From: Proteromonas lacertae
Taxonomy: Eukaryota
Assembly: GCA_002245135.1 (NCBI GenBank)
Contig: NGBS01000597.1
Span: forward strand, 62,001-126,000
DNA length: 64,000 nt
Direction: 5' to 3'
This document shows positions 3,741 through 53,781 of the stretch, piece after piece. The position numbers were made by a program, and so were the translations under genes. Position 1 is the stretch's first letter. Each line of letters starts with the position of its first letter. The notes under the pieces were generated by a model. That model was given only the letters and a program-made list of their open reading frames with translations, ran no database searches and was not told where the DNA came from.

Positions 3741-5091
3741 ATGAATTATCTTTTAGAAATACAATCAGAATGGCCAGATAACAGCCAAATATTTCAGAAA
3801 TTCGAATCTATCCTGTCTTGCCCTATTTGTAAGGAATTAATACAAGGAGCAGTTATTCTGCCTTGTGGTCATTCATATTGTTCATTATGTATAAGAAAAT
3901 TTATGGAATATAATGAAGAATGTCCAACATGTCGCTTAAGATGTTGTGATGGTGATTTAATAAGAAACAATCAACTTGAGGAAGTAGCGCACTATTTTTC
4001 TATAATAAAACCACAAATAATATCATTATTAACGAATTCAAATAAAAATATAAAAGTAGATGTAATATCAAATACTTCCAATTCTAGAAAACCATTAGCA
4101 AAAGTATTTTACAATAACATATCCCTTCAACGTCTAAAAGAAATGCTACAGTCCTGTAATCTACCAATTACAGGAAGTAAAGAAGAAATGATAAGAAGAC
4201 ATAAGGATTATATATTATTGGTATATATATATATATATATATTGTAGTACAATTCTGAATGTGATAAAATAACACCACTATCTGAAGATGAGATTGTTAA
4301 GAAAGTAATAGAACAGGAGAATCAAAGAAGTAAACAGAATAATTTATTGAGTAAAACTAGATTGAATTTCTTTCATTCAAATCCTAAAACTACATCAGTA
4401 TTTTATTAAATAAATAAACATATAAATATTGTATATAGATACAATTAGGTGAGATATGGAGAGTGATTTATTCAAAGAAACTTGATAGAATATTATACTA
4501 TAATCATAAAGACAAAATATTACAAGAGAATGTATATATCATTACTATATTATTTTATATTTTATAATAAAATGAATAGCCACCTAATCAAATAAAAGAT
4601 TTTACAAACTATGATGTATTTTTACCATCAAATAGTAATAATAATGAAATAAAAGAGGTAGTTATTACACCTGACAAAAAAGAGAAAAGAAAAATCTCCA
4701 AAATTGATAGTTTTATTGATAAAAATCCATCATCAACCTCAGATATTACTATGACAACATCATACAATAATAAAAATAGCACTAATCCAAATAAAAAGCA
4801 AAAGACAACTGTATTAGATTATTTAGAAATAAGTGATGATGAAAAAAGCAGTAAAAAAGATGATAATCAACAAGAAGTTGATGATATTAGTAATGATGAT
4901 GATTTTGTTGAAGAAGTGAAGATAGAAAATGAAAATGATAGAAAAGGATGGATTTGTAACAAGTGTACTTTATGGAATTTAGGAAAATATCTTTTTTTAA
5001 TTCAATACTCTTGTGTTTTAGTGTTTTTAATTCATCTTTTTTTACTACAAATCTGTGTGATGCTTGTGGATCATTAAGAAAAAAGAAATGA
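3741..5091 (+). CDS. RAD18: RAD18-like E3 ubiquitin ligase (RING-HC, SAP, C-terminal RanBP2/NZF zinc finger)
   Basis: CPICKE...PCGHSYCSLCIR...CPTCR; SAP-like LKEMLQSCNLPITGSKEEMIRRH...YNSECD; last exon completes W-x-C-x2-C-x3-N-x6-C-x2-C. Confidence 0.85.
4987..5045 (+). other. U12-type AT-AC intron in the RAD18-like gene
   Basis: 5' ATATCTTT, branch-like TTTTTAAT at 5024-5031, 3' AC; removal yields WICNKCTLWNLGNTNLCDAC, an exact RanBP2 zinc-finger spacing. Confidence 0.85.
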
Positions 5092-5132
5092 ATAATTACT
5101 AAATTTTACACAGACAATAAGATAACATTAAT

Positions 5133-5659
5133 TTAAGATTGATTGTTTTGTTGTGCATCTATAACATCCCATACAGTAACTCCTAAACTCTTTAAATCAA
5201 CAGGTTGCATTTTCTTGTCAAATACTTGATAACCTTCTCCACTTTCATCTTCATACTCTTTAAATGGAGGTGGCAATGTAGTTAACATAAATCTCTCTTT
5301 TGGGAATGGTGTTGTGTCTGGCAAACGAGCTAATTCTCTTAAATGGTTTGTAGGTAGTGCATCCACAGCTCTATGCATTAGATATATTTTATTATCAATA
5401 TCAGCTCTTCTTCTAAAATCTCTTTTTTGATATTCTTTATTATATTTAGCAAAAATGACAGAAGCTCTCTCTTGTAACTCTTTTGGTAAATCTTCTCTAA
5501 AAATATACATCAAATAAGGCAATACAAAGTTTCTTTTGGTTCTAAAATATCAATAATAGCTTCAAAAAAAGGATCTTTACCTTTTGCAAAATTACGATTT
5601 ATAATTATTGGACTAATATTAGCACATCTATGAATTGGTATAAATAATCTTGAAAACAT
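5133..5659 (-). CDS. Mitochondrial ribosomal protein mL40-like
   Basis: Arg-rich, acid-free N-terminus MFSRLFIPIHRCANISPIIINRNFAK; AVDALP..LRELARLPDTTPFPKERFMLTTLPP resembles the MRPL40/MRP-L28 domain; one intron. Confidence 0.6.
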
Positions 5660-5748
5660 CTTCAATCAATAGAAAAAGTAAAAATAAATTATCACAGGCT
5701 TGAAGATAGCTTGATATATTACATTTTTCATTTTTGACTTAATTTAAG

Positions 5749-6627
5749 ATGGTATAAGCTTTCTATTAAACTCAATTTTAATATTTTATAGCCACAAAAC
5801 GAACATATTGAGCTATTTCAAAAAAGAAACGGATTCCGTTTAGATCATTTTGAAAAAGAGTATTGATACTCATTTTTATATATTAGGCGAAAGAAAGAAG
5901 CTCGTGCAGCTCATGATAAATCAGAATTCGCTCAAAAAGTAAGAGGTCTAAAAGCCAAGTTATACAACAAGCAGAGGTTTAAGGAGAAGGCTACTATGAA
6001 GAAACAGTATATTAGGTGATTATCATAAATAATAGGATCAATATGCATCAAGAAAGAACAAATAAACATTCAAATGATGATAAAGTATCAGAAGGTGCAG
6101 TACCAGCTTATTTATTAGATCGTGAAGGTGTATCTCGTGCAAAAGTCTTAAGTAATAGTGTAAAACAAAAGCGAAAAGAAAAAGCTGGTAAATGGCAAGT
6201 TCCAATTCCTAAAGTTAATCCAATATCAGATGCAGAGATGTTTAAAGTGTTAAGTACCGGTAAACGAAAGAAGAAACAATGGAAGAGAATGATAACTAAA
6301 GTTACATTTGTAGGAGATAGTTATACAAGAAAACCTCCAAAATATGAAAGATTTATAAGACCAACTGGTTTAAGATTTAAAAAAGCACATGTTACACATC
6401 CAGAATTGAAGACTACTTTTTATTTAGATATAATTGGAGTAAAGAAAAACCCACAAAGTGCTTTATATACACAATTAGGAGTTATTACTAAAGGTACTAT
6501 TATTGAGGTGAATGTGAGTGATTTAGGTTTGGTTACACAGAGTGGTAAAGTGGTTTGGGGTAAATATGCACAAGTTACAAACAATCCAGAGAATGATGGT
6601 TGTATTAATGCTGTCCTTTTGGTTTAA
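5749..6627 (+). CDS. NSA2: Ribosome biogenesis protein NSA2
   Basis: ATG, intron, then PQNEHIE; highly conserved [18 protein letters not shown] segment and [24 protein letters not shown]-terminus. Confidence 0.97.
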
Positions 6628-6807: not shown

Positions 6808-9800
6808 ATGCTCTTCAATAACGTAGAAAAAGATTTTTATTTTGTCGAGCCGAACTATCATATGAACTTTTATATCTCGAGAATGAGAAATCGATTATAT
6901 ACAATAGTTATTTCAATGATCCTTGTTGCTAAATCTATAGCCATCCATAACTTTAGATATCCTGAAAGCCCTTATCAAATGGATATTTACCAGAATGATG
7001 TTAAAATAGAGCCTACATATGAGCCAAGCTTATTTGATTTTCTGACGTGTTATTGTGACTCGGAATTACCCCCTGGTTTAATGTTTCATAAAAATGGTAC
7101 AATAAATGGTATTCCAGAATATTCAGGAGTATGGGATATTGTTGTTGTTGGTCATTTCTATTTCAGTGGGAATGAAACCGCAGCTTTTACCATCAAAATT
7201 TATGGTGATCCACATGATTGTAAGTATCCAGTAACATCCATGAAGCTATATGTAGGGCAAATGGTAACTGGCCTAATTCCGTCTTGTCCATATATTTATA
7301 TGTATAACAGTATTGGTTTACCTCATGGTTTATCCTTAGATCCATTAACAGGTGAAATAACTGGATCACCAACTACAGAATATGGTATTACGCAAGTACG
7401 AGTGCAATTTGCATCAATCAATATAATGTACACAGCTAATATCAATATAGAAGTAGTGAGTCGATATAGTTCAATAAATGGAGTAGTGATTGATTTTATA
7501 TACTATTCACTCTGTAATAAATTACCTTATTCAAGTGACTTTAAAACAGAAGCAATAATAACATCAAGGATATATTATCAATTGAATTTATTTACAGCGT
7601 CATTGCCAAATGTTGATTTGAATTTACCAACATCATTAACTCAAGGTTATGCGTTTAGAATACAAGGGACTTTGGTTGTTGACACTTTAGGTCAATATAT
7701 ATTCTCATTAGAAGCAACAGATGGTGTAAAATTCACTTTAAAACCTACCCCCTCTTCATCAAGTGTAATATTTAACAAATTATCATGTACAACATTTGAA
7801 CAATTTACAACAAAAGTTGAATTAACTGATCATTTAATAGATTTTGAAATAGTTGGTACTCAAGTTAATAATGCTCATGTATTTCGAATACTGTGGAAAA
7901 ACGCTGGTTCTTCTAGTGAACAACCGAAAATTATTAAAGGAGATAATCTATTAGTGATGCCTACTTATTTAACAAGATTACATTATGAATCTTCTACGCT
8001 ATTATTTCCACTAAATCAAGTAGTAACATATCCTTTATTTTATTCTGGTTTTCCATCATCATTTGAATTAAGAGAATGTATTTTACCTTCTGGCTTAAAT
8101 TTTCATAAAAATACAGGTACAATTGAAGGATCTTCTAGTTATTCTTCTATTATAGGACATTGTATAATAAATGGAATAGGCTTGACAAGTTCGTCAGAAT
8201 CAGAATTCAGTTTTATGGTAATTGATCATATATTAAAATCGAATGGAGTTATAGGAAAATTCTTTGAAATTTCTGGTGGTGATTTGGATATACAAGATCG
8301 TAGTTTATCTGATCCATCTAAATATCAATTAGCAAGTCAATTTTATCAAGAGAACATTAATTATAATGGAAGTGGTTTGTTTTGGAATTATTTACCTCGA
8401 ACTATTAGTTTGCCATTTTCATCTAGTTGGGAAGGTTATATAACTATCTCTTATCCATGGACTTACTGTATTTATTGTAACGCAACTGATATATGCCATG
8501 TAGAAATAGATGATCAATTGATTATATCAAAACAATATTATCATTTAGATGAAGTTTCAGATTGTCAATTTTATGAAGCAAAAGAACATAAAATAAGAGT
8601 TGTAGGACATCAAATACACAATAATTCAATATTAATCATATCAATAAGTGGTGGTTATCCTATACAAAGTAAACATCCTATAATTAACTATCATTTTTAT
8701 CCAAAAATACCTTTTCATTATAAACTCAATTATTTTACTTTAATTCAAGGACAGTTGTTTAACGATCCCCCTTTACTCTTCTTAACATCTTATCAGTCAT
8801 ATAATGATTTGACTTATACTGTTTATCCACAATTACCAGCTGGAATAAATCTTTATGAAAATGGAACAATCGGTGGTAGTACAACTTTATCTAATTTACC
8901 ACTTTCTAATTATACTATTAAAGTAACAAATGAAAGAATTAATCAATATTATACTACAACTATCTCATTATCAATTATTAGTGTAGTACCTCCAAAGAGA
9001 ATTACATATTCTCAAGATTTAGTCGAATCTTCATTAGGTATTACAATTCCAACATTAACTTGTGTAATAGAAGGAGGAATAGTAGAGAAATATTATACTA
9101 TCCCTGAATTACCTAAAGGAATAATCTTAGATCAAAGTGATGGAAGTATATCAGGAACACCAATGGAAATATTCAAAGGAACAATAATAGTATATGCTTC
9201 AAATAGTGGTGGAAGTTGTTCATTTGAAATTACATTTACTTTTCGTGATTGTGAAGGCGCTGATAGTGTAATTTTGTCATTTGTTTTAGGTAAAGAAGGT
9301 TCTCCACAAATTACTGTTTTCTTTAATGAAGAGAACATTTATACAAGACTTGGAAAAGGTATTAATGATACAAAAGTGTTTTGTCATTCTGGAGAAGGTA
9401 ATTATAGAGTTATGTTGAGATATGATTCACACAGTAATAAACCATATGTTTACTTAAGTTATTATCCAAATGTTATTATTTATGAAGGATATACAAATAT
9501 GGAAGCTCCAGAGCAAAATATTATTTTTAATAAGACTTATAGTGAAGTAGTTAAAATAAATATGCCAATAATGACAGAAGGAGATTCATATTCATATATG
9601 GAAATTATTCCAACTATAAAAGGAGCATATTCTAAATGTACAATATTAAATGCAATTGATTTATTCAAAGGATTGGAATATAATACTCATAATTGTATGA
9701 TTACTGGAATTCCTACTGTATCTGGAGATAGATATCTTACAGCTGAAATTTGTAATCCTCGTGGATGTGGTACAAATACATTTAGAGTGGTAGTAAGAGG

Positions 9801-14761: not shown

Positions 14762-15929
14762 ATGAGAACACAAATATATCTCTTGGTATCATTATTATTT
14801 TGCGTTGCAATTTGTCAAGATGAAGTAGTTGAATATACTACACCAGTATTCATTCACGGTGAAGGAGGTTACCCATGTTTGAGAATCCCAGCCATTGTTC
14901 AAACAAAGAGTGGTAAATTATTAGCCTTTGCTGAATGCAGAACCTTCACTGGTGATGGATGTAATCCAACAAAGAAATATCAATACACCTCAAAAGAAGG
15001 TGTTGCTCCAAACGCATTGAAAGGGTATTTCCTATAATACATCTATCTATCTATTAAATAGACATATGTGTATGAAGACATCAACTGATTTAGGAAAGAC
15101 TTGGTCAAACCTTACATTCCCATTCGGTAAAGAAGCTTGGCAAGATGATCCAGAACCAGTATACGATGAAAATGCCAATGCAGTCATCTTCCCAATTATG
15201 CACGAAATCAACGGTAGAAGTGTAGTTTATCAACGTATCAGTTATGATGAAGGTGAAACATGGGTTGAAGAACAAGATTTAAGTCAATACTTAAAACCAA
15301 ATGAAGGAACATATCCAGGTCCAGGTGCTGGTGTAATGAAGGAATTTGAACCACACAAGGGTAGATTATTATTCATTGGTCATTGGGGTGCTTACCAAAA
15401 GGATATTGTCTGGTATAGTGATGATCATGGAAAGACATACAAGAGAGCTGAATATACCTTCCCAGGAATGGATGAAGCTATGTTAGTAGAATTATCCAAT
15501 GGTACAATGATGGCTAACTTAAGAAATAATAAGAAATGGGGTCCATACCGTGCTGTTTCAATTTCTAAGGATGGTGGTGAAACATGGACTGAAGTAAGAC
15601 CAGAGAAACAATTAATTGATCCAGTCTGTCAAGGATCTATTATCAGAAATGGTAAAAACTTATATTTCAGTAATGTTCACACTGAAAACTCAAGAACCAA
15701 CATGACTGTTATGTTCTCCAAGGATGATGGCGAAACATGGAAGAAATATGTTCAATTAACAAAGGATGAAAGTGCTTACAGTTGTTTAACCAGAGTAGGA
15801 AAGCAAGATCATATTGGTTTATTATATGAAAAGAAGTGGGAAAATTGCAATGGTCATGCATGTGCCATATTATTCGCTTACATCAAGACTGATGATAAAG
15901 TTAAAACTACACCAAATCTAAGAAAGTAG
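14762..15929 (+). CDS. Secreted GH33 sialidase (exo-alpha-sialidase)
   Basis: Signal peptide, LRIP motif, five Asp-boxes (STDLGKTW, SYDEGETW, SDDHGKTY, SKDGGETW, SKDDGETW), YPGPGAG, DEA, SAYS with the catalytic Tyr; one intron at about 15025-15061. Confidence 0.92.
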
Positions 15930-21807: not shown

Positions 21808-23353
21808 ATGGGTGTATGAAACTCAACCAAAAATTTGCACCTATATCATTTTTTTCAATAAATGAATAGAAGGCGTTGTGAATAAAGTATTCTTATTACT
21901 CAGATAAATATTATTTATAGTTTCTCTCTACATTTACATCAGCGATAAACTCGAATAACACTATATTACTAAAACAGATATTTACTTTAAGTACAAACTC
22001 TCTTCCTGATTCATTTGCATCAAGTGCTCTTGCTGTATGTTAAATCATTATTATTTTCATAATAGAGTCCTGAAGAACTAAAATCAACATTACAAAGTTT
22101 AATAAATGGAGAAGAGTATTATTTAATTTTTATGTATTATACTTAGAGATTGTTCTAACTTTATATGTCATTTTATAAAGGCTTGGGCAAATTATAAGAA
22201 TCATAACTTGAGTGAGTGTTGTAATAACTATGAAAAGTCTATAACATACTTTTTATCATCTTACTACAAAGACACTGATAATGAATGGACAATACAATTA
22301 ATGAAGCAATTCTGTCACGAATTATATCACACAGCTGTAAATGCTGATTTAGAAACAAGTAAAAATAATAACAATGTAGATTGGCACAAATATGTATATA
22401 TAAATAATATAATATAAATATATATATATAAATAGAAGAATAATTATAGTAGAGGTTTAATGGATTGGTTTGCAACTTGTTATGGAGATAAATCAAAACT
22501 CCAAAATCAAAAAATCCAAATTATTATAGTAATATCATTTTTTTCTAAATAGTCTTTTTTTAAATAATTAATGTTCCTTAATAATATGATATAAATAGTG
22601 AATTACTTGTATAGATTGTACTTCTTAATCAACAATATAACAATTAAAACTTGTACAGTATTATACAATCAAATGAAGAAAATGCCAATTAATTTGTGTA
22701 GTAAAAGTGATCAAATTACATATCATTATTATATTGGAAGAATATTGATGTTTACTGAACAGTATAGTGAAGGAGTTGAACATTTAGAATATGCATTTAT
22801 TCATTGTCATAAGAATTATTTTAATAATAGAAGAAGAATATTGAAATATCTAGTACCAATGCAACTGATGATTGGGAAAATGATAAATCTACAACTTGTT
22901 GAACAATATAAACTTAATAATGTATATATTATTGTTTATATTTATATAGTATTTGACTTTATTAAAGTGTTTAAAGAATGGAAATATAGGATTGTATGAT
23001 AAAGTATTAGAAGAGAATGAAAATGAGTTTATATCAACAGGTGTTTATTTAATATTTGAAAGATTAAGATACATTGTATATCGTAATTTATTTATGAATA
23101 CATTAAAAATACTGGAGAAACCTCAAGAACCTTTGAGTATATTTTTAAAAGCACTTGAAATTGCAGGTGAAAATAATGCAGATTTAGATCAATTGGAATG
23201 TATTTTAGCGAATCTAATAGCCAAAGTATGATTGTTTATATAATTGAATAGAAATTTATCAAAGCTTATATAGCACATAAAAAGAGTTTCTTAGTGTTTA
23301 GAGCAACTGGTGCTTTTCCTCCATTTGAAGAAGGTAATTTATCAAAATTATAA
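21808..23353 (+). CDS. PCID2: PCI-domain protein 2 (PCID2/THP1/CSN12-like)
   Basis: VNYLYRLYF, ITYHYYIGR, LEYAFIHCH..YFNNRRRILKYLVP, GVYLIFERL..IVYRNL, LECILANLIAK/FIKAYIAH; start inferred. Confidence 0.85.
22532..22594 (+). other. Probable U12-type AT-AA intron in PCID2
   Basis: 5' ATATCATTT, branch TCCTTAAT at 22575-22582, ends TAA; phase-0 join QKIQIIIV/IVNYLY. Confidence 0.65.
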
Positions 23354-24669: not shown

Positions 24670-26340
24670 TTAACGAGGTGATTCACCAACATTCTGTCTT
24701 TCAGATATAATTTTCAATGATCTAGATAGTCCTCTTTTACTATACAACATATAAATAAACATATAAAAACATACATCAATTGCTTTTCACTTTGAAGTTC
24801 TACATAATCGTTATTCATACTATCGGATATTGGAGGATGATAAATAATAGATTGTTTATGTGAAGAAGGTGATGTAAATTCTTCTAACTGTTTCCCTCTC
24901 AAATGATATAAGAATTTAACAGCTCCAATGAGTGTTGAATAATAATATCTATAAATAATTATTACATAATAATAAAATATACTCATATCCATTATTCATC
25001 AAGTCACTCACATCATAATATTTTAAATAATACAAATTAGTGATCAAATTACTAATCTTTGATTTCCAGATTAATAACACAAATAATGGAATCATATCAT
25101 CTGAAGCCAACACGAATTGTTTAGATTCATCTTTATCTATAAGAATAAATATAAAAAATATATATATAAATAATATACAATCCTCACCATAATATGATTT
25201 TCTATTATCTACAATCATATCAGATACACTTTGAGTTAATGATTGATATACTTCTTTAATACACTCATACTTCGCTAATGGAGATGTTCTAATTGATATC
25301 TGTTTAAATGTTGAGATAGGAGATGATAAATAATCAACACAATAATAATCAGATTTCAATCCAATAATATCTGAAGTTAATCCACCTGTATTAGTTATTT
25401 CATTCATAACACATTGAAAATCATCTTCTAAATTTTGATTCATTACTTTTAAACAGTAAAACAGCTTTTCATAGATTGAATCACTCACACATATAGCTAT
25501 TGCTCTTCTTATTTGCTCTTTATATTTCTTATTAGTATCAGCAGGGAAAAAATCATTATTATCTGTTACTACATAGGTTGTTACCATATTTATTGTTTGA
25601 TTCATTTTATTTAATAAGTCTTTATATCCTAAGTCTCCATCTAGAAATATATATCCTTTGTTAAATGATTAAAAAAAAACATTCAAATTAAGGAAAAATA
25701 TATATATAGTTATTTAATAAACAAAAAAAATGATATATTTGCATATAGCCATAGTATATTTAATCCTTTTCTATTTCTTGCATCATTACATAAGATTTCT
25801 ATATCTTCGTCTGATGATAAATCAACACCGAATAATAGACGTTTTTCATCAAAATTAACCATCTGATTGGTTACATCTATTGGATGTTCAATACAAAGTA
25901 TTTTGTATGGTTCATAATCTTCATTATAATATATTTCTTCAAAGAGTATCTTAATTTTATGTTCTAATCTGTTTTTGGACGAAATTTGACTATCCTATTT
26001 TTTTATTTATATTTATGATAATCATACTCGAACTGTTATATAACCTGAATCAAAGCATATGAACAAATTACTAAGTGTAACCATTTCATTAACAAAAAAA
26101 GGAGAAGGACTTAATATATGATTATCTAACAGTAAATATATGATTAAAAAAACAATACCTATGAAGCTTTTAGAAAATGTGAATTTCTTGAGGGAAGCAA
26201 GTTGTGGAACACATATAACCCATTTAAGTTGCACAGCCTGATATTGCAATTTCTAAAAACTATATTATATTTGGTTATACAGGATATTGACTTTGTAAAG
26301 CTTGAAAAAATATATTATCACCTAAATCTTCACCACTCAT
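24670..26340 (-). CDS. VPS9-domain Rab GEF with a VARP/ANKRD27-like N-terminus
   Basis: EDLGDNIFFQAL, ICVP, ILFEEIYYNEDYEPYKILCIEHP; VPS9 motifs SPLAKYECI, LASDDMIPLFVLL, GY/YYSTLIGAV. Confidence 0.85.
25669..25736 (-). other. Probable U12-type AT-AA intron in the VPS9 gene
   Basis: 5' ATATCATTT, branch TTCCTTAAT, ends TAA; phase-0 join LWLYAN/SFNKGYIF links two open exons. Confidence 0.75.
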
Positions 26341-31171: not shown

Positions 31172-34100
31172 ATGATGAGTTTAAAAGAAGTGCTTCTGAT
31201 TATACTAGTAATGATACAATTCTCATCAGAAAGTTCAATTGCCGCAAAGAAAATGTGTTTTGCTTTTGAAGATGATGAAGTTGCTGATGTATTAATAGAT
31301 ATAACTGAAGCATTATTCAACTCAACAAATGTAATAAATGATAATGATATGGAATATGTGAAGTTTGATACTTCAATAGATCAAAATACAGTAGATACTT
31401 ATAAAAAATTGGGTGAAACAGGTAAATGTGGTATAGTATTTACAAAACTTAAAGGAATAAGAAATAATTTATCAGCAATAGTTGAAGTTAACAATATGAT
31501 GAATTATTATAATATGTATACTATTAGTAGTGTTCTTGGGACAATACCAATATGCTTTAACCGTGTTATAAGAGGATATCTAACTTGTGATTCATCTTTT
31601 CAGTGTATGATTTATAAGATTTCTATTTATATATATATTTTAAATAGATATGAATTATTATTGGAAAAATAACACCAATTTTGTACTAATATATTCAGAT
31701 AAAAGTGATATGAAAGGTTGTGTAAGTAGTTATACTGAATACTTCAAAGGTAATGAAATGAATATCACACGAATAATAAAATATGATACTGCAACAACAC
31801 CTCCTTTATATGAAAAAGTATTAGCTGAATTTAAAGATAAGAAAGCAATAGTGATTAACTTTTTACCAGCAGATGAAACAGAACCTGTTGCTTTGTATAT
31901 ATCCACAAATACTCTAAATATTACAATGATTTCATTTCAAGAAATCTCAAAAGCAGATTTACCAAAATTTCCAACAACAAGAGATACCACTGATAATAAA
32001 TATTCATTTTATGTAGCATCTCAAATTATATCATTGGATATAGAAAAAGATGAAGCATTTAAGAATGCTTATTTATATGTAAGAGATTATAAACCAACTT
32101 TAGATCCTTCTACCACTGATACTGCAGCTACTACTACTGCTCCACCCAATCCACCAACTACTCCTCCTCCAGTTAATATTGCTGATTTTACAACAGAAAT
32201 GAAACTATAGTATATTTATTTATTTTGTATATATATATATATAGTTATGAGTTATTATCATTATATTTGAATGAAGTAAAGACAAAAAAGATTGTAACAC
32301 CTGAAATGGTTATTAATAGCTTATATAATGAATTAAGAACAATTAATGAGGTTAGTTACAGTTTATTGTCTAATAATGTTCTAGTTGGTTCAGTAGATGG
32401 TTATGAAATTGTTGTAGATGCTGGTAAAAATGTCTTAGCTAATGAACCATTTAGAGTTGTTCCAATCAGTTTTGATATTCAAGAAAAAGAGTTAAACGGC
32501 AAACCAATAGAAAATCTCTGTGATTTTTCAATTTCTGAAACTAATTTTAAATCAACTTATCAATATATTATAACTGTAAGTTATTATTCAGGTGCTTTAA
32601 AAGTATTAATTGAAGGAATTGAGGATACATTAGAAGTTGCTTTGGATAGAATCAATGAAGAAGAAGAGATATTGGGAAAGAAAACTCTCTCAATTACTAT
32701 TGATGCTTCAAGTGGTGTTGAAAATGTATTGAATGAAATAAAAAAATACTATGAAAAATTTGATATTCTAGCCGTTTTATATTATGGTTTAGATGATGTA
32801 TTAAATGCAATGATAAAAGCTTGGACTTATGATATTCCCATTATAAATTACAGTATAACAGCAGGAGAACATTGTAATAGTAAAGTATTAGAAATGGGTG
32901 TAAATATCCAAACATTATGGAGAGCAACAACTGAATTATTTGATATTGACACCATGATGATTGTATATAGTGATAGTGATTATTCAAACACTGCTCGTGA
33001 TATTATAAGTGCAAATGCTGAGGAAATTGGTATATATTTAAAGGAAGATGCTTTTGTTGAAGAAAATACAGTGGAAGCTTCAAAGAACGCATGTGGTCAA
33101 ATTTATTCAAAATGTACAGATGGGTGTTATGTGATTAATATATTAGATAGAAGTTATTTTACAAATTTATTTACTGAATGTTATAATGATTATAATATTT
33201 CATCAACAAAATACCCAATAATATCATATGCTATTGATGAACAATTATTAAAATCAATTGATGCAAAAGCAGTAAATGGTCATTATGTAGTTGGATATTT
33301 CTTTGATTCAATGGAAACTGAAGTTGGAGAACAATTGAGAACTGCATTGAGGAATAGGAATTATTTTGGCAAAGTAACTTCAAATATGGCTATTTTATAT
33401 ACTACCACATTTGTTATTGCTAGAGCATTTAATAAAGCAAGAAGAAGTGATCAACTAAGAGCATTTTTGCTGTATATTTTCTATTATTTTTCTATTTACT
33501 TAGAGGTGCAAGAAATAGTTTTTATGATGGTCCAGGTGGTCATTGTTATGTTAGCCAATATGGATATGGAAGTTATTTATTTAATTCTGGATATATTAGT
33601 GATGGTAGTATAATTGAATTAGATAAATCAAAAGGCACACAAATTGCATCTGCTTTTAATGACCCTTCTGAATATTGTGATTGGGTAAATGGCAAATTAG
33701 ATCATTTACAAACAAAACAAGTGATATTTTTGTATGTAAGAAATGAAACAAATACTGAAAGAATTGATTATTATGAATATACAGCTAATCAAGTCGGAGG
33801 ATTTCTTAATTCAAAAGGTGGAATTGCTGGTTATATGTTGAAAGTTAAAGTTCCACCACTTCATTCAATTGAAGATTTAGTAAAATATATGAAAGGTGTA
33901 AATCCTATAAATGTTTTATGTTATGTTGGTACAACATCATATCTTTTTAATTTAAGATATTATTATTTTTATTAGTTATATATCTTTAATTACTGTTTAA
34001 TAAAGAAGAAAGAGAAGCAATTAAAACAATATTAGCTGAACAGGATAAATTATTATTCAGTATTCATGCAAGTGAAGGTGAAGAATGTGATAAACAAATC

Positions 34101-37100
34101 ATTCAAATTGCTAGAATTCCACATCAATATGTATTTTCTGTATTTGGTTATTTCACTGAAAGACAAAGCGTTTGTGCTATTATATCTGATAATTCAACGT
34201 ATTTTGTTATTATTTAATTTATTATAAATAGTACTAACGATGGAATTGCAAATTATTTATCCCAAGTGTCACATTCATTTGTTTCTTACAATTGCTATGT
34301 AATTAATTTTGAGAATTTTGAACGTTTGAAATATCAATTGAATTTAATGACTACATTTTCAAATTCTACAACTTTATATTCTTTAATGGGAAGTTTGACA
34401 AATGAAATGATTAATAATATTTATGATTGGGGTTTTTTACCTCCTGAAAAATATCCAATAGTTATATTAGATTTATTATATCCAGAGTATTATAGTTTTG
34501 AAAATAAAACTAAATATGAAGGTCATTATTATGTTTCATCTTATTCATTACAAAAGACAAATCAAGAGAATTTACAGATGAAGTCAGTTATTGAATTGTA
34601 TTATGGAAATTTGCCTCTACAAATGCATGAAGATTCTGTTGCTGCGTATATATATATTAATATTTTTTTTAGTTTTTCTGCTTTAACATTAGTTGCTTCA
34701 GCTATGGGAAACATTTTTATTGAATCATCAGCTGAATTAAGATATAAAATCTATAAAACATCAATCAATACTCCATATGGTGAAATATCAGTTTCTACAT
34801 CAAATTTGATGAAGTCTTATTTTACAATTCATAAATTCACAAATGAGACTGATATATTGTTAATATTACCTGAACATTCACTTGAAAGGTCACAATATTC
34901 TGCTTTTGTATATATATTTATATATTTATATTATAGTTGAATAATAATATAAACAATGTATGTGACTTTGATGAAGGTGTAAATGTCAATTATTATGAAA
35001 AAGAAGTATATAAATTCGCACTATGGTATGAAGATGAAGATGAAGCACTTTATTTTCTATTAAGAGAATATCAAGATATTACTAATGAAGAAGGTGGTTT
35101 TGGAGGTTTGAATTATGATTTAGTTAAAACATTTTGTAAGAATGATACAGAAATTGAAATGTCATTTAATCAGTCATATAGATTTATTATTAGTGGATGT
35201 AGTGATGAAGTTAATAACAAATATATTGGACGTTTAAATAAGACATTTATGTTTGTAATGAAAGATCAGCAAACTTCAGCTTGTAATGATTCAGCGTATA
35301 TATTTTATATGTTTTATACATTATTAATATTGAAATAGAATATATTTGGGTTTATCTCCTTATCAGCAAGCATATCCATTAATCAATTATATTTCGACTA
35401 TTTATCCACTTAAAGCTTTTGTAATAATGGATATTAGTTATAACAATTCAATATTCCATGATATTATTGTTGAATATTTACATGAAAGTGGTTTTGAAAC
35501 ACCAATTGATGTTTATGTAAATGAAAGTAGTACTGTAAAAGAAGTAGAAGAACAAGTATATGGAATATTATCAAGAGTATTAAGATACATGCCAGAAGGT
35601 GGTGTAATATTTAATTATTTAAATGAATATTCTGAAAGTGTATATACTGCTTTTCATGATATAATATGTTATTCTCAAAAATATGAAAATATAGATTGTA
35701 AAAATTCAAGTGTTTATACTGACAAATATGTTATTGTTACTGACAATAACGAAATGTTTGGTGAAGTAGAACCAAAATTAAGAATTGGTCATTTGTTGTT
35801 AGTTAGTAGTTATGTAAATACAGCACCATATATTGAACAATTGTGGATTGATTTATTTGGTAAAAATCAAATTCCAACTTCTATTGAAGCAAGAGGTGCT
35901 TTAGGTTATGAATTGATGAAAGACATTTTGAGTAATACATTAACAGATGATTATGATACAGTTAGAGATTATATGTTTAATAATAATATAGAAACATCAT
36001 TTGGTGAATTAGTAATAGATATAGATTTCCATTTACATGTGAAAATATCAATAATGACAAGTGATGAAAATGGTAATATAGTAGAAGTTAGTCAATTGTC
36101 AAGTTATTTCCCAGCTGAAACATATTTCTTAACATCTAATTCAAAAACTGAACAGTTTGTGTGTGATTTCAAAGATGCACAAGGCGAAACAATTCAAAAG
36201 ATATTTAATGTTGTTATATTTGGACCTTTATCAAATGCTGATGCTTACGTTGGAAATGAGATGATGTATTCATTCTTATCAAGCTTCGACTTGATTAATG
36301 AAAATGGAGGTATTCAAGAAAGATTTGTCAATCCATTAGTAATTGATTCTACGAATGATGAAATAGTTTATGATACTATAAGAAATATGAAGAGAATATA
36401 CCATACAAGAATAATATTTGGATGTTATGATTCATTTACTAGAAATGGAATTGCCAAAGATTTGCATGAAAATGGAGTTTTATTGTTTTATCCACATAAC
36501 TTTGAAGGCTTTGAATGTAAAGAGAATATTATATATTGTGGAATGCCTTTCTCACTTAGAATTGCTTATATTCCTTGGATATTATCGACATTTGATAAAG
36601 ATCGTATAGCTATATTATACACTGATAAAGTAACAGAAACAAAAATAATGCAGTATATAAAAAGTGAATTTAGTATTAGAGAAGTAACACCTATTGCAAT
36701 TATTGAAGTTTCAAACACTGATTATGATATGGAGAAAATATTGAAGTTATTACAGTCTAAAATGAGTAGTGGTGTAATTATATCTTTATTGACTGGAACT
36801 GCTAGATTTGAGTTGTTTAAAACAATGTTTGAATTAGAAATGACTTCTGATTCATATACAGTTGTTGCTGAAAAGGTGAGAAGAGTAGATATTGATGGTC
36901 CATATGGTAAATATATGGTAGGACATTATATTTGGGTTAGTTTCCATAAAGATTATTATCCATTAACAGATGTAAGAGAAATATTCAATAAAGAATATTC
37001 GTTTGCAATAAATACTACTCATGGTAGTGAAAATGCATTCTTTGCAGCAAAAATATTTGAGAATGCCTTTTCAAATATTCAATTCAATGATTCTGAAGGT

Positions 37101-40100
37101 TTAGAAGTTCCTTACACATTTGAAGAAGCTTTAGATGCAATTCATAATGCTATAATAGTAGAAGGAGGTATGAATGTGAAAGTTTTTACCAACAATTATA
37201 TGAGTTTTTCAATCAGTTTATGTAAAATATTAGAAAACAAAACAACTGGATATCTTGAAGCTAATGCAATATATGAGTATCATTCATCTGATGTTACTGC
37301 ACCAAATCCTTGGAAAACTAGTGATCCTAATTATCCTAGATTATCATGTAATTGGGATACAAAAGCAGCAATAAGAGGTGAACAATTACAGGAAGATAGT
37401 TACTTCATTGGTGCAATATTTTCAGTTAAAAACAACGAATCTCCTTTTGAAATGTATGGTTTGAATTTGTTAATTGCAATGACATCAAAGATTAATGATT
37501 TAGGTGGTGTAATTGGTAAAACATTGAATTTTAAAGTATATGATCCTTCAGCTTATGATAATGATTATGAAAAAATAGCAAAAATAGCAGCTGAAGATGA
37601 AGTATCAGTATTCTTTGGTTGTTATACATCTGAATGTCGTATTGCATTTGCTAAAGAATTTCAATCAATCAATAAGTATTTATTCTATCCACAAACATAT
37701 GAAGGTCAAGAATGTTATTCAAGTGTATACTATTTTGGAAGTATTGCAAATCAATTATTTGACCAATTAGTACCATATTTAAGAGTTGTATCTAATTATA
37801 ATGAGGTATTGTTGATTGGATCATCCGATTTTGAACCTGAATATACAAATACCTTATTTGATGTAGTGAAATTTAAACTGGAAGATATAATGGATAAAAA
37901 AGGTGAATATAGAATAGACAGTAAGAGTGGAAGTGCAAGAGCAATTGTATCTACTGTATTAGATGATTTACCAAATGGTGGTATTATTATTTCAACATTG
38001 ATTGGTGATCCACTAAATGAATTTTTGGTTGCATTGAATGAGAAGATTGTAACAAGACATCAATTACAAGTTATTTGTATTGGTCCAGATAGAGAAATAT
38101 TGGATTATGCAATAAATGATTATATTGATGTTTATGAACCAAGTTATTATTTCGATGAAGTAAATGAAACAAATGCATTCCGTTTAGCTTCTATGGAATA
38201 TACAATAAAAGAAATAAATTCAGCATATGAAAGTTCAGTTTATGCAGGAATGAGATTTTGGTATAGAGCTGTTTTAAAAGCGAATAGTTTAGAAATTGAA
38301 GATTGGAGAAAAGCAATAATGGGAATGGAATATGAGACTGGATCTGGTATATTGAAAATGAACAAAAATCAATATGTATCATTACCATTCTATTTAGGAC
38401 AAGTTAATACAACAAGCAGAAGGTTTGATATAGCATTTGAACAGGATATAGTAATCGAGCCAATGGCTTGGAATTGGGATATTGTTGAAACACATGGTAA
38501 AGTATGTGATCATACAATTGGTAAAAGTAAATACGATATTGATATAATAAATATACTGTTTGGTATATCATTAACAGGCATTCAACAATCAATGGATACT
38601 GGATTATCTAATGTAATGAATATGTTAGTGGATGAGTTTAACAATCTAGGAGGAATTATAGATCATAGATTGTATGTAACTGATATTGATATAGGTAGTG
38701 ATGATACAGAATGTTCAACTGTATTTTTTAAGAATTTCGCTAATGATGTAGATGATACAATCAATTTAATTATTACTACAGCAAGTATTGAATGTATGAC
38801 AATGATATTAGATGAAGTAGTAAAAAGAGATATTCCAATTATACATATTGGTATGTCACCTGGTGAATCATGTGAGAATAATATCATCTATGCCAATAAA
38901 GAGCCAAGTATTGTAGAAAGAGTAGTTAGCATATTGAATGATGTAACTGATGAAAGTACATTAGCTTATGCAATATTATCAACTTATGATGAATCTAGTT
39001 CAAGAGCCAATCAATATGCTCAAAAAGTAGTTAAGAATTTAGGTGGAACAATTGTTCTTGCAAAGACATTTACATCAACCATATCACAGCAAGAAGTTGA
39101 TTTAATAATGAAAACTATAAGTGAAAGATCAACAGGTTGTTTTGTTTTATTGTTTGGTAGTGATAATTTACATAAATATGTTGATAAATCATATACTAAT
39201 ATCAATATAAATGCTGAAAAATATAAGATAATATCTTATTCCACAGGTGAATCAATGAATAGTCCAAATTATCAGCCATTCTATTCCATACAATCATATT
39301 TCCAATCTATAGAAGGTGAATCAAATGAAATATTTGTTAATAGAATATCTAAATATACTAAGAATCCAATAACTGAAAGAATGTCAAGTTTATATGCAGT
39401 TTTCCATTTATGGGCAGATGCAGTAAAGAAGGTGAATAGTGTAGATTATTCAAAATATCAACAAGCATTATACACTGTTAATTTTGATGCACCAGAAGGA
39501 AATGTGAAAATTGAGACGAATAACTATATGAATCATTATATTCGATTTGGTTATCATAGAAAAGGAAATAATGACTTTGATAAAGTGTATGAAAGTTCAT
39601 TACCAGTATCATCTAATCCTTGGAAAACTGAAATGAATGATGGTTATTATATATGTGATTTCTCAAGTTCAACAATTGGCAGATATGCAAGACAATCAAC
39701 CGTTTCAATTGGTGTATTAACCAGTTTTAGTGGTTCATTAGCAAGTACTGATAGAATTATATTGAATGGTCTTAAAGCTGCAGTAACTGAGTTAAATAAT
39801 AATGGTGGTGTATTGGATAGAATGGTATTAATGCAAATTCGTGATTGTAAATCTTTATTACAGAATTATATAGCTTATGCAACAGAATTAGGAAAATTAT
39901 CTGAAATTGTGGCTATATTTGGTGGTTCAAGATATTCACAACAGTTAGCTGTATCTGAAATTGCCATTAAATATAATATTTTATATTTCTATCCAGCAAT
40001 GTCAGGTGGTGAATTCTGTTCAGCAAATACATTCTCATTTGGTATTGTCGGAAGTCAAATGATTTCAGTTATAAAGAAATATGTAACAATGAAAGTTAAT

Positions 40101-43100
40101 ACATTCATTGAAGTATATGATACAACCGATTTTTCAATTAACATTACAAAAGCATTAGAAAGATATGGAGATGAAATAAAAATTGCTTCTTATCCAGTAT
40201 CTTATCTCAATTTGACTGATATATTATCAATACCAGAAAGTATAAGAAAGAAAAGTGCAATTATTGTGTTTGTTTCAATTGATTTTATCCCTATAACTGT
40301 TAATACATTATGTGAGCTTGGCATTTATCCTGATGCTGGTTATAGTATATTTGCTGTAACAATGGAACAACTGCATGCCAAATCAATTCCACCAAAATGT
40401 TTAAGTAATTATAGAATGTTAGCAACATTTACAAATGATATGGGATTAACTACATCAGATGATGTTACAAAACAAGATTCAGCAGTGACATTTGTTACTG
40501 CAATGAATGATTTGTATGGTGAAGGTTCTTGGTTTACACAACACTTAGAATCAGCATATACAAGTGTGAAAGTATGGTCTGAAGCAGCAAAAACATCATT
40601 TTCATTTGATACTGACAAAATTAAAACTGCACTTTATGGTTTATCAACCACTACTCCAGCTGGTTTATTAGTTGTTAATCCAAATGGCTTTTCAAATCGT
40701 GTAATTTATGGATTTCAAGTTGATGGAACTGGAAAAACAAAAGTGACTAGTTATTCTCCTCAACCAGAAACAGCTGATGCTTATAATCAATTGATTGAAG
40801 GAAATGAAGAATATGTTTGTGATTTTACTGATAAAGGTGTGAGATTCAAATATGATTCAGTAAAAATAGCATTATTCCATGATGCATCTAGTACAGCTCA
40901 TGATAGAGAAATGAGAATATTGACTTTAGAAGAGTATTTAATTAATGATATTAATAATAATAAAATCAATGGTTATTATATTCAACCAATCATTATATTT
41001 GGTACAACAGCTCAAGATTTTATTAATGAAATTCACAAGATTGAAAATGATACAAATATTATATTATATATGGGATGTAGAGGAGATCCATGTAGAGAGA
41101 CAGTATTAGCTGAAGCAGAAAGATTGAACATGTTCTTTATTTATACAGGTATTTCGGAAGGTTATATGTCAAGTAAGAATATGTTAGTTACTGGTAACAC
41201 AGCTTATCAAAAGATTCGTGCTTCTATAACGTATATGTTAAGTCAAGGAGTAGAAAACTTCTTATTGATTTTATCTGATGATCCAAAGATGAAGAAGTAT
41301 TTGACAACTGCCCAGTATGTATTAAAAGTTGAAGAAAAATACAGTAAAGTGAATTATATAACTGTTGAGTCAAATAGAACAGATACAAGTTATTATACTT
41401 CAATAGCATCTCAAATATCTAGTTCGAAAATAATAAATGGAAGATTATGTTGTATATTTATTTATTTATTTATTATGTTAAATAGTATTATATTTCTTGG
41501 ATGGTACATCTTCAAGAATGACATTACAAGCAATGAAAGATTATGGAATTAATTTCCATGAGATTATAGCTATTCTAATTAGATATACAAGATCAGATTA
41601 TAGTGATGGTTTCTTAACTGGAATGCCTGGAAGTTTAATAACTGTCAGTTATTCATCGTCTTTAACAACATCTTTATCTGAAGCGTTTGTAAGTGATGTG
41701 CAAGAGAATTTAGGAAATACAGCAGAGACTTTGCAAGAAATGGAATATATAAAAGTTGGTTTTGATATATGGAAATCTGCAATGATTCAAGCAGCTGAAG
41801 ATAGTGGAAATAAAATTCCACCAATTGAATATCTTAGATCTTGTATAATTGGTCAAGATGTAAAAGCACCAAGTGGTTCTGTATATGTTGAAGAGAATTT
41901 GCATTTACAGAGAAATATATTTATAATGGAAGGAAATGCAAATGGTGATTATTTACAAGTATATCCTGATACAGGACAAAGTATATTGATTGAACCAAGA
42001 CCATATCCAGAAGGTTTACCTGAATCTGCTAGATATGGTAAAAGTAAAGGCTTATTTGAATATAGCACTTCAATTGTAGCAGTTTGTTATTTGATGATGG
42101 GTATTGGTATTATATTTTCACTATTTGCATTGATATTCACAATTGTCAAACAGAAAAAACAAGTTATTCGTGCATTTGGAAGACCTTATTCTTACACATT
42201 AGCATTTCACTTGTTATTCTCATCATTTTCTGTTTTGACATATATTATTCCACCAAGTGAAACTAATGGTATATGTAAAGCTCGTGTTGCTGTAGTAGGT
42301 ATTGCGTTTAAAGGTATTTTAGGTTTATTCTATGCAAAAGTAACAAAAATATATCAGAAATATGTCAGAACTCAAAAGATTATAGTAAAAGTATAAATAT
42401 ACATTATTTATTTATTTAATTATTATAGTCGCGTGTTACTACTGCTAGAATATTATTGTTTTATGTTGGTTTTATAGTTTTAGGATTACTAGTTGTTATG
42501 GTATGGTTCTTAGCTGATATTCCAGAATATGATCCAGTTGAAACTACAAAATATTCATCCTATTTTGTAGATGTTTCAATTCGCCAATGCACAGTTTCAA
42601 CTCCTCTATTGTATTTATTTATATTATATATTGTTTATTATTAAATTAGATCTGTTGAATTAGTGATTGATGGTTTGTTGTTGTTATTCCTTATTTACTT
42701 AACAGGAAAAACAAAGAATGCTGCAAATCAACAGAATGATAGTATTGGAATGTTTATTTCTACATTGATATTGACACTATTAGGAGGAGTTATGGTAGCT
42801 TTAGATTTCAGTGTTAGTAATGAACCTGATTCAATATTGCTGTTAAGAACATTAGGAACAGAATTGATTATTATTCTAATGGTATTGTTACAGTATGGTA
42901 TAAAGTTACTTAATTTGTATTTGGATGAAACAGCAAATCTTACAACTGAGTCTGGTAGTAAACATGTAGGAACAAATGGACATTTAGGAACTGGAACTGG
43001 AACAGGAATGCATACATCAACATCAATCAGTAAAATACCAAATTCAAGTTTATTATCACAATCTGCATTTTTATCTTCTAAGATGACTCATACTCATACA

Positions 43101-43133
43101 GCCAAAACTCTCAGAACACAACAGAAACATTAA
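31172..43133 (+). CDS. Giant class C (GABA-B/mGluR-like) GPCR with nine tandem UrtA/AmiC-type periplasmic-binding (Venus flytrap) domains
   Basis: Signal peptide; repeated IN..GG[IV].G, LFYP..YEG.EC and P.G.[VL] motifs; about 11 short introns join the ORFs in frame; 7TM with VIRA...C.AR...G.FYAKVTKIY and K.KNA....NDS motifs. Confidence 0.88.
33939..34000 (+). other. Probable U12-type AT-AA intron in the GPCR gene
   Basis: 5' ATATCTTT, branch TCTTTAAT at 33983-33990, ends TAA; join gives YVGTTSKEEREAI, aligning with FGCYTSECRIAF of repeat 6. Confidence 0.75.
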
Positions 43134-49400: not shown

Positions 49401-51978
49401 ATTTTGTTTTAGAGAAGGTTATTTAAAAGCATATGTTGGTGAATATATTGGTATTTATAAACCAACATTTTGGTGTTGTGATTATATGTATTTATATTGT
49501 GACAAAGAATTAGAACTGAGAAAGAGTGGTATATTCTTCAACAGATTAACAGGTGATTTTCAAGGAAATGTAACTCAACCTTTTCCTGAACAAGTTGTTC
49601 ATTTTTATGTGTTTAATAGTGTTGATTATGATAAAGCAACAGGAATATCTATTCCTTTTAATTTGACAGTTTATTTTACACATCCACCACCATCCAATCT
49701 AAGATATTCTCCAAATCCTGTTACTTTTTATGTGAATGTAACAATTAATCCAATGATTCCTACTATTGATGGTGTTGTTTATAATTATACTATTAGTAAA
49801 GAATTTGAAGAATTAGAAGGTTTAGAATTTGATAACAAAACTGGTATTATATCTGGAATTCCTGAAGAAGTAACAGATAAACCAATAATATTGAATATCA
49901 CAGCATGTAATGATGAAGGATGTGTTTATTTCGAATTGAATATAACAATTGATATTCTTAAAGAAAATACTATAATGTATTTACCAAAGAAATACATCTT
50001 CCCAATAAATGACTATTCAGAAATATCAAAACCATCCTATTATACGCAACAATCAACATTATTGAAATTTGAAATAAGTGATTATGATTATTTAACATCA
50101 ATTGGTTTTATATTCAATACAACAGATGGTTCAATTAAAGGAACACCAACCATATTGGTAGAAGAACATGAGTTTATTATCACTGGTTATTTTAACGATA
50201 GTGATAATCCAACAGATAGAATATCAATACAAGTGTATGATCCATATCAATTCCCAATATATATACCAGAATCAGCTGTATTTGATGAAAATTCACTTCA
50301 TATTTGTTTGAATTATACTCATCCAAAAGGATTGCCTATTATATGTAGATTATATAATAATATTACCTTAACCAATGAATGGGAAACTGTTCCTCAATTT
50401 ATTGGCTTATTAGATGGTCAGTTTTATTCAATTATAATGAAGAATCATTCAATTTTATTAGATGAAAGTAGCAAATATTATTATCACGGATTAGTTCATA
50501 ATTTATTAGGTTCTACAATTAAAGATATTAATTTCATTATTGAAACAGGAGGTGATGAAAATGAAAGTGTTTATTTGACTGAAGAACAAACATTAGAAAC
50601 TACAGATGTTGGCTTTATATTTTCATATGCAAGTAAATCACATTTCTATAGTATTTTAGTAAAAGTGGAAGGTGATTTTTATACTAATTTGACTGTAGAG
50701 AATTATGCATTATTTGTAGCACACAGTTATTCATCTTCATTTGTTAAAGTGATGATAGAAAGTGAAGGTAATGTTACAATTAATAATCTTGGAAGTATAG
50801 GTATAATGCTTTGTAATGGTGAAAGTTTATCCATAAAGAATTCTTATATTCATATGAATATTGTAGAGTATAAAGATCCAGTTTATGCTGGTTTATTTGC
50901 TGGTGTTTGTACATTCTGTTCATTTTTAAATTCATTCAGTCATGTCCATACTTTTAATACTTATGTTATTTACTATGGTGATTTTTATATATCAGGATTT
51001 ATTGGTGTTTCAGATTCTTCTAATTTTACTAATATTATGACGACTGTTGGAGAGTTTAATATTCAAGATGATCTAAGATTTAATGGAAAAGTTGGTCTTG
51101 AAATGAGAAAAATGCAGAATCAAGTGATAAGTGAATTAGTTGGTCATTCTCAAAGTTCAAAATACCTTACATGTAATACATATTCTAAATATAATATAAT
51201 GAATACAGGCTTAAAGTTTGGAATTGGAATTGGTTCAGATGTTGCATTTAGAAATAATTCAATTGCTGAGAGTTATTTTACAGTTTATTATAAGGATTTA
51301 GATAAGTCAAACAATTTCAAAACATTACCAATGAGATCCAATATTACTAACACTATATTATATGTAAAACCTGATTTAGATGATTATTTTAATGATAATA
51401 AGGATGAAATAAAGGAAAATAATAAGCCAATCAGAGAAGATGTTTATATTTTGTATAATAATGGTGAAGAAGTAAATTTAACAAAATATGAAGGAGTAAA
51501 AAGTGTTAAATTTAATGAAAGTTTAGATTCAAAGTTATTCGATGGATTAGATTTCTCAATATTTGGTTATTGGTCATATGTAGTTCCATATGAAGTGATT
51601 AAATCATTAGAGGATATAACTAATCCACCAGAAGATAAAGGAGAATTGAAGTTTAAAAAGTCAGTATTTCAATCAAGATTACCAATTAGACTTGATAAAG
51701 GAAATAATACATTTGAATACTGGCCTGTTGCTGGTAATTGTTATATTGTGTTAGATGAATGTTGGGATGTTGAAACATGGGAAATTAAGACAAAGAACTT
51801 CCCTGTGTTGAATAGATTCAGAACAGATTATCATTATGAGAAACCATTTGAATCATTTGTTGATAAATACTCTACACAGTGTTTGCCAGAGTGTAGTAAG
51901 CAGCAGCAGTGTATTAATTATAAATGTGTTTGTATTAACGGAATGAAAGGTTTAGATTGTGATATACCATTTAATTAA
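46429..51978 (+). CDS. Large secreted He_PIG-repeat glycoprotein with a terminal EGF-like domain
   Basis: Signal MFKRAILLL/YMLLNVLG (one intron); repeated GL.FD..TG.I.G.P and AxNxxGC motifs; many N-x-S/T sequons; C-terminal C...C...C.C..G..G.DC. Confidence 0.8.
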
Positions 51979-52244
51979 AATTAAAATCTCTCTATTTATA
52001 CATATTATTTTGATAATTTGTTGTGTTTGTCGATATTTATGAAACTAAATTAGAGATTGGAATAGAGCGTATTTCATACTTACTTAGCTACAACTTAACA
52101 TGGTAAATACAATATTATTTCTCTGTAAAACTCTATATACAAAAATAATGATTATTTAACAAAAAAAATGAATGAATCGGCTTGAACAGACAAACGTTGT
52201 TTTCATTTTCTTTGTTCAATTTTTTAGAGGCATTATCTACATTT

Positions 52245-52844
52245 ATGGACAAGAACAACTCAGGTACTCGTCAAGCACGCACAAACAGTCAAGAGTCCTT
52301 TTATAGACCCAACTTTTTAGTAAAACCACAGAATCCCAATTACTTGAAAGACAGATTTAGAAATAAATCAATGTCGTACAATTTAAAACAAGGAGAAATA
52401 AATAGAGTGTTATCTAACCAGAGTTCACCCATCACAACAAAATACTGTTTCAATATATCAACCAAGACGCAATCAATATCATTTAGTCATCATGATCAAA
52501 GGTCATCATTAGGATCACCAAGAAGGAATAGTACTATACAACGGAAGGAAGAATCGTCATTACCATTCCTATATGGGCATTTGAATGAATATAATATCAA
52601 AACACATTACATAGATTTGTTTCTCAGAATTAATGATAAAACAGTCAGATATAAAGACTATCTCTCCAGTTATGCATCTATAGCCTTAGATTTATACAAA
52701 AGAAGTTTAATACCACTAATAAGTCTCGATTATTATACCAGACAAATTACATGCTTTGTAAGTCCGAAGATAAGAAAATTAGATATGGAAGGAGAGGTAT
52801 TTTGGGGTGAAACAAGTCCAGTTAAACATAAAAGTGGTAAATAA
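52245..52844 (+). CDS. Hypothetical protein
   Basis: About 200-codon intronless ORF from ATG 52245 in very AT-rich DNA; no family recognised. Confidence 0.55.
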   Translation: MDKNNSGTRQARTNSQESFYRPNFLVKPQNPNYLKDRFRNKSMSYNLKQGEINRVLSNQSSPITTKYCFNISTKTQSISFSHHDQRSSLGSPRRNSTIQRKEESSLPFLYGHLNEYNIKTHYIDLFLRINDKTVRYKDYLSSYASIALDLYKRSLIPLISLDYYTRQITCFVSPKIRKLDMEGEVFWGETSPVKHKSGK

Positions 52845-53008
52845 ATGCGGTGAATATGTTTATAATATTTTTTTAGTTATTTATAACGCAATATGTAATT
52901 AATGTGTTTTGTGACTTATATTGATAGTTTTATTTTTAATAAACATACAAAGAAATAAAAAAACATAATTAAAAAAAGCAGAAAATCAATTAAACATAAT
53001 ATATTGAG

Positions 53009-53781
53009 TTAATTCTGAAATTCAATATCACCAAGAACAAGTATATGAGATGGTAATTCGCCTGGTTTGGGTTGTAATAATTCTACAGTTTCATTATTAA
53101 CATCTACATTCAATATCTGCACAAATCCCATTGAATTACTGGTCAAAATCTCTTTCATCTCATTGGCTGTAGAAATAGAAGCTATTTTCTTTATATATTC
53201 ATTCTTTAATTCATCAATCTTTATTTCTTCTACTTTATATGGTTCTCTTGTAGATTTTGTCTCTATTGGCAATAATTAAATGATATATTAAGAAAAATAT
53301 ATCTTAGAAAAAAAGAAAAAAAAGGATATTGCACTATCATTTAAAGTTTTAACAACTCGATAGAAATTGAATGAAGAAAATGAATAAGTAACTGTAGGAG
53401 GTGATAATGGACAACCCAAATTACCATAAAAATACTTCTTTATTGAATTATTTCTAAACCTGGTTCTAAATTCTTTATCTTTTTCAGATACACCTCCACT
53501 TTTACCCATTTTAGTAACAGCAATTCTTCGACCAAATTGATTATACAATTCATGCTAAATATATATATATATATATATATAATATACAAAAACATAATCA
53601 TCACTTATTACTATAACAATATTAATATTAAATTGAGTTATTGCTTTCTTCAATAAATCCAATCCCAAACCAGTAACCCATCCAAATGTATTGACGATAA
53701 TTCCACTAGTCTTTGCACTTATTGAACTTTCTGATGATTTGTTGACTGATACAGCTAATTTTGACATTAACATTTCATAAC

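Follow-up and report, generated by a model that had tools for sequence, protein, structure and literature searches.

Minor (U12-type) introns have been described in Blastocystis. For subtype 1 (ST1), Gentekaki 2017 (PMC5608401) reports 346 U12 introns out of ~35,412 (~1%), typically with AT-AC ends, together with all four minor small nuclear RNAs (snRNAs) and seven minor proteins (its S1 Table). Larue and Roy, who analysed ST1 with intronIC, give 253 minor introns, 77% of them AT-AC, with a median length of 39 nucleotides (nt) (PMC10639083). AT-AA is the commonest non-canonical minor type in the animals and plants tabulated in PMC10639083 (Table S1) and PMC1557818 (Table 2). For Physarum polycephalum, bioRxiv 10.1101/2020.10.12.336362 lists 20,899 minor versus 154,299 major introns; AT-AA accounts for 27% of its 1,014 non-canonical introns and ~1% of its minor introns. 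Other literature consulted comprised PMC10690189, PMC3564746 and PMC11347168. Here, we describe five introns in a 64-kilobase (kb) stretch of Proteromonas lacertae DNA (contig NGBS01000597.1, 27% G+C; hereafter the window, meaning the whole stretch analysed). Their sequence indicates that they are probably real U12-type introns, and four of the five have predicted AT-AA ends. This AT-AA majority is the new part, minor introns themselves being already known from the likely lineage.

Genes were predicted on both strands with our own model, trained on the window itself. When only GT-AG and GC-AG introns were allowed, 95 introns were called, and the PCID2 and VPS9 genes were each broken in two at the sites listed below, as expected from the claim in the first-pass annotation of this DNA that standard gene finders would miss such introns. 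A minor-intron state was built on the textbook consensus, with any end allowed (acceptor prior: AC 0.3, AG 0.3, AA 0.15, AT 0.15 and the rest 0.1). Once this state was added, exactly the five introns of the first-pass annotation were recovered with the same ends, among 98 modelled introns:

4987..5045, + strand: intron of the RAD18-like gene, in its last zinc finger; AT-AC; phase 2; length 59 nt; branch A, 5030; branch-to-end distance, 15 nt
22532..22594, + strand: intron of the PCID2 gene; AT-AA; phase 0; length 63 nt; branch A, 22581; branch-to-end distance, 13 nt
25669..25736, - strand: intron of the VPS9-domain gene; AT-AA; phase 0; length 68 nt; branch A, 25688; branch-to-end distance, 19 nt
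33939..34000, + strand: intron of the G-protein-coupled receptor (GPCR)-like gene; AT-AA; phase 2; length 62 nt; branch A, 33989; branch-to-end distance, 11 nt
53276..53329, - strand: intron of the CLP1 gene; AT-AA; phase 0; length 54 nt; branch A, 53288; branch-to-end distance, 12 nt

Removal of each intron joins two open frames. The count of 5 in 98 agrees with the earlier rough estimate of about 5 of 90-100, and the denominator is better taken as ~100 because at least two 5' introns of NSA2 were overlooked by the model. With a ten-fold lower minor prior, the RAD18-like intron is no longer called. The bare donor motif is common in this window, where 60 ATATC[ACT]TT sites occur, so what counts as evidence is that it falls where the reading frame breaks. 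When seven permuted donors were offered to the model as decoys, they gained 0.7-11.8 log units versus 27.1 for the real motif, and the model used them only at the frameshifts of a BEACH gene (see below) or at the true sites. Two candidates for a sixth minor intron were rejected. That at 61126-61162 (37 nt, AT-AG) was called only with a five-fold higher minor prior, is GC-rich and lies inside the frameshifted BEACH gene. At 21843, the donor and the branch motif would share sequence, and the conserved N-terminus is retained under the GT-AG model, as judged by eye.

The five introns stand apart as a class. All begin with ATATC-N-TTTT (TTTT at +7 to +10; the first-pass annotation had noted ATATC[C/T/A]TT) and match the U12 5' splice site consensus RTATCCTT(T) save at the degenerate position +6, which is C in one intron, T in two and A in two. 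That annotation was silent on the canonical C being present in only one of the five. The combination of +5C with TTT at +7 to +9 is found in all five and in 1 of the 93 GT-AG introns. Likewise, the branch-like motif YYTTAAT, its A lying 10-20 nt before the 3' end, occurs in all five and in 3/93 GT-AG introns (Fisher p = 8e-7). The branch motif is TCCTTAAC-like in every case and exactly TTCCTTAAT in two, its final base being T, not C. For U12 introns, PMC8199999 gives a branch-to-3' end window of 10-20 nt with an optimum of 11-13 nt. The extra length noted earlier was also recovered: the five span 54-68 nt, while GT-AG introns span 24-62 nt (median 33) and only three of the 93 reach 54 nt. Major introns (n = 93) start with GTAT in 86 cases and end with TAG in 89; the sole GC-AG call among them is a 30-nt intron at 9513-9542 (+). 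Since these contrasts partly reuse features scored by the minor state, they describe the class and are no independent test of it. Motif, spacing, length and frame all argue for the U12-type reading of the first-pass annotation. The intron bodies show no mutual similarity of the Introner type (ten pairwise scores of 9-19 versus a shuffled mean of 14.7 and a 95th percentile of 21), which rules out a recent Introner burst or a copied family. No Rfam match, for instance to a minor snRNA, was found within the 64-kb window, a small scope that says little on the genome.

The 3' ends were assessed by protein homology. For CLP1, VPS9 and the GPCR-like gene, in-frame, stop-free junctions within 45 nt were scored against protein profiles. 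The CLP1 profile contained 53 homologues, picked by length from 62 hits. Among 1245 candidates, the AA end scored 381.6 bits (rank 6, at most 0.3 bit below the top), the AT-AG alternative 370.2 and the best GT/GC-AG 368.8, and the protein aligns gap-free with the AA-end junction. With the VPS9 profile (10 distant homologues, 1080 candidates), the AA end scored 247.9 bits (rank 6) and an AC end 9 nt downstream 238.6; the latter would delete an F found in 9 of the 10 homologues. The VPS9 junction allows no slide, and no in-frame GT/GC-AG option was found within 45 nt of it. Relatives of the protein encoded by the VPS9 exon were found at 93% and 53% identity, and none was found in Joint Genome Institute metagenomes. 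The GPCR profile was made from four other repeats of the same protein (1376 candidates). Here, the AA end scored 42.3 bits (rank 5), the top ten candidates all removed 62 nt, and the alternatives reached 38.6 (next AA), 31.2 (AT-AG) and 30.1 bits (best GT-AG). In all three tests, the higher-ranked candidates lacked a splice motif, so homology sets the removed length and the rough place, and the ATATC donor then sets the AA end. GT-AG solutions for the interruptions were 11-13 bits worse or absent and were discarded.

In PCID2, the exon after the intron opens with I-V-N, aligned with L171-V172-N173 of human PCID2 (numbered through a 456-residue chain from PDB, with a constant 57-residue offset across the aligned region). 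An in-frame AC 12 nt downstream would remove these three residues, and the one in-frame GT-AG intron found as an alternative would span 120 nt and cut far into the upstream exon. The PCID2 junction can slide by -1 to +3 with the messenger RNA unchanged, and that of CLP1 can slide too. A homologue search using the 3' exon of PCID2 gave no matches. Human PCID2 has a U12 intron, not necessarily at the position of 22532..22594. For the RAD18-like gene, 6955 junction pairs were compared, of which 20 give back an intact zinc finger, whose pattern we take to be W-x-C-x2-C-x3-N-x6-C-x2-C; all 20 remove 59 nt, and AT-AC ends are found only for the junction listed above. Protein homology thus indirectly supports the predicted AA ends. 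Of the shifted acceptor and branch claimed earlier, the acceptor is the part that homology favours; the branch shift comes down to a single C-to-T change after the branch A.

Several observations weigh against this assignment. The +6 position departs from the canonical C, which is present in one intron and replaced by A in two. The DNA model alone leaves the intron ends undecided: with a flat acceptor prior, AA is retained only at PCID2 and GPCR (two of four), the VPS9 end shifting by 3 nt and that of CLP1 by 6 nt, and with an acceptor prior of 99% AC/AG, the PCID2 and VPS9 ends shift to the downstream ACs. The VPS9 homologues are only 22-27% identical. At CLP1, the least certain end of the five, the AA end ties with a 57-nt form ending in TA 3 nt further on (381.4 bits). 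Of the 80 other eukaryote loci covering the CLP1 intron position, 61 run through it without interruption and 13 are split elsewhere; many are intron-poor or transcript-like. This intron is hence not shown to be ancient. At one locus, L073, a GT-AG-like acceptor lies some nine codons upstream of the CLP1 site, not at the site itself. Finally, splicing at the predicted ends is inferred here from sequence.

Some of these points would fit U12-type introns whose true 3' ends lie elsewhere, at the ACs 12 nt (PCID2) and 9 nt (VPS9) downstream and at AG or other ends in GPCR and CLP1, in which case AT-AA would form no majority. In-frame AC and AG sites do exist, the strict AC/AG prior selects two of them, and the longer CLP1 form is tied. 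However, these sites are 23-28 nt away from the branch A and score lower by 9-11 bits, and their use would cost conserved features (IVN in PCID2, F in VPS9 and, in the GPCR repeats, the G-x6-R spacing); we consider this alternative improbable.

Alternatively, the introns could be A-initiated but spliced by the major spliceosome, whose GTAT donor shares positions +2 to +4. In agreement with this, +3A, +4T and -3T are common to the major class, +6 is off the U12 consensus in four of the five, no minor snRNA was seen in the window, and PMC1557818 records U2-type AT-AC introns in other organisms. Nevertheless, the five differ from the 93 major introns in +5C, T run, branch motif and a nearly doubled length, which a second machinery would predict, and the minor machinery is present in relatives; use of the major spliceosome is therefore quite improbable too. 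Misassembly of terminal AC, AG or AT as AA is the least credible alternative. The assembly is unclean, since two genes carry six apparent +1 frameshifts between them, but these lie near both window ends, the genes modelled from ~3.7 kb to 60.5 kb require no frameshift, and four separate errors would have to fall exactly on the last intron base.

The six apparent +1 frameshifts, none explained by an intron, comprise two in an actin-related gene (2150-2430, -) and four in the BEACH gene (~60550-63150, -). All are of one sign, only three lie within 6 nt of a stop (codon model), and they have no common motif. Local assembly error or decaying genes is the likely explanation, and programmed frameshifting may be another.

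As to how such introns would be removed, we favour, with good confidence, the minor spliceosome for these A-type introns, the four predicted AA ends arising because the 3' end is likely chosen by its distance from the branch point. U11 and U6atac would read the 5' splice site, where the T run past +6 may compensate for the lost +6 C. U12 would pair with the branch motif. T in place of C after the branch A would form a G-U wobble with U12, and this replacement would require no snRNA change. The 3' end would be the first in-frame A-N within 10-20 nt of the branch A, selected by spacing. In all five introns, the predicted end coincides with the first in-frame A-N that lies at least 10 nt past the branch A, and the competing in-frame ACs lie about 25-29 nt from it.

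Mutation pressure in the introns (89% AT) would have replaced the terminal C, leaving the last base to drift. According to PMC8280824, the last base of A-type minor introns varies (the AT-AN class). The intron bodies are 39% A, and A at four of five ends has p = 0.08 under free drift. They are also 50% T, yet none of the five ends in T (p = 0.03 under free drift), which speaks against a freely drifting last base and suggests that A may be preferred, not neutral. G-type minor introns would be drained into the major class, whose donor is GTAT, and ready capture by this donor may be why all five survivors are A-initial. Two short GT-AG introns on the - strand, 44362-44386 (25 nt) and 54338-54368 (31 nt), begin with GTATCT followed by a long T run, and the second additionally carries TTTTAAT 13 nt from its end. 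Both may be minor-to-major converts.

The first-pass annotation had called AT-AA a rare subtype, and the shares given in PMC10639083 and PMC1557818, 1-3% of minor introns, agree with it. At the plant rate, AA in four of five minor introns has p = 4e-6, and p is still 0.011 if every non-AT-AC intron of ST1 (23%) were AA. The AA majority is therefore a robust surprise, though n is five. These introns resemble the AT-AA minor introns in published animal and plant sets in their termini, 5' motif and branch spacing. No description of an AT-AA-dominated minor system was found in the literature searched, which consisted mostly of listings, not full texts, and in which the Proteromonas genome paper did not surface. 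If AT-AA dominates genome-wide, this would be a natural case of a minor spliceosome largely releasing the last intron base. It could then be tested on hundreds of introns whether branch-point spacing alone sets the U12 3' end, and such a system would bear on why A-type minor introns persist in the lineage. Under pipelines limited to GT-AG, GC-AG and AT-AC, these genes would come out split or truncated, with in-frame TAA ends read as stops, and minor introns would be undercounted.

The density of minor introns is less telling. It amounts to 5.1% in the window (95% interval 1.7-11.5%). At the ST1 rate (~1%), five or more minor introns have p = 0.003 for one window and 0.51 for the best of 250; the window had been selected as outstanding. 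These counts do not establish the expanded minor complement that was claimed at first, and an expansion above ~1-2% of introns is plausible. A tentative possibility, which we rate below an even chance, is that the minor system of this lineage has been remodelled: AT-AA would be its default type, minor introns would account for 3-5% of all introns, and U11/U6atac would have changed so as to accept A or T at +6. Such a density would exceed all the reported values that we encountered except that of Physarum, and hundreds of introns would be missing from annotation. According to the preprint cited above, Physarum has in common with the window a high density, a degenerate +6, many non-canonical ends and an altered branch motif. 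In contrast to the Physarum branch, TTTGA with a co-evolved U12 snRNA, the branch in the window is near canonical.

The window lineage is likely to be Blastocystis or a near relative, as suggested by NSA2. In a quick tree with 128 rows, the NSA2 exon of the window and its close relatives grouped as sister to the clade that holds three named Blastocystis sequences (Shimodaira–Hasegawa-like approximate likelihood ratio test, SH-aLRT, 84, not strong), and relatives at 93-99% identity were found only among Logan proteins. An affinity drawn from one gene, with this value in a quick tree, counts against leaning on the comparison. Introns near 30 nt fit the description of Blastocystis in PMC5608401. 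The TGTTTGTT motif of human Blastocystis subtypes was not enriched in the window (8 seen versus 7.3 expected). G+C content is 21-23% in tortoise Blastocystis isolates, 39-55% in human subtypes and 27% in Proteromonas lacertae (PMC12129017, Table 1), so that the window falls between the two Blastocystis groups and matches the Proteromonas lacertae value. As in Blastocystis ST1, where minor introns are unusually common, the genome is one of short introns, and the minor introns are mostly A-type and longer than the major ones; half of the minor introns reported for ST1 are in phase 0, as are three of the five here. Unlike those of ST1 (typically AT-AC, median 39 nt), the introns of the window are AT-AA in four of five cases and 54-68 nt long, at 27% G+C, although the per-intron lists for ST1 may hold some AT-AA.

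The genes that host the five introns were modelled as follows:

3741..5091, + strand: RAD18-like gene, 4 introns, with RING and SAP domains by Pfam
21808..23353, + strand: PCID2 gene, 411 amino acids, 8 introns
24670..26340, - strand: VPS9-domain gene, 466 amino acids, 7 introns
31211..43133, + strand: class C GPCR-like gene, 3836 amino acids, 11 introns
53009..54467, - strand: CLP1 gene, 415 amino acids, 6 introns

None of ten open reading frames of the window had an exact match in the protein collection. At 3100-3614 (+), the model found no ATG to connect with the start of an open frame (3198-3614), which may reflect another frameshift or an overlooked 5' exon. In the GPCR-like protein, many bacterial-type periplasmic-binding repeats (Peripla_BP_5/6) precede a class C GPCR seven-helix domain (7tm_3), and its ESM Atlas matches are bacterial periplasmic-binding clusters only. 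Two large genes, 6883-11805 (+) and 46429-51978 (+), are almost without introns and encode proteins with putative immunoglobulin (He_PIG) domains, the first with a weak PA14 match in addition. A BNR-repeat, sialidase-like gene is located at 14762-15929 (+); a bacterial-type GH33 sialidase is reported for Blastocystis ST1 and ST4 in PMC5608401.

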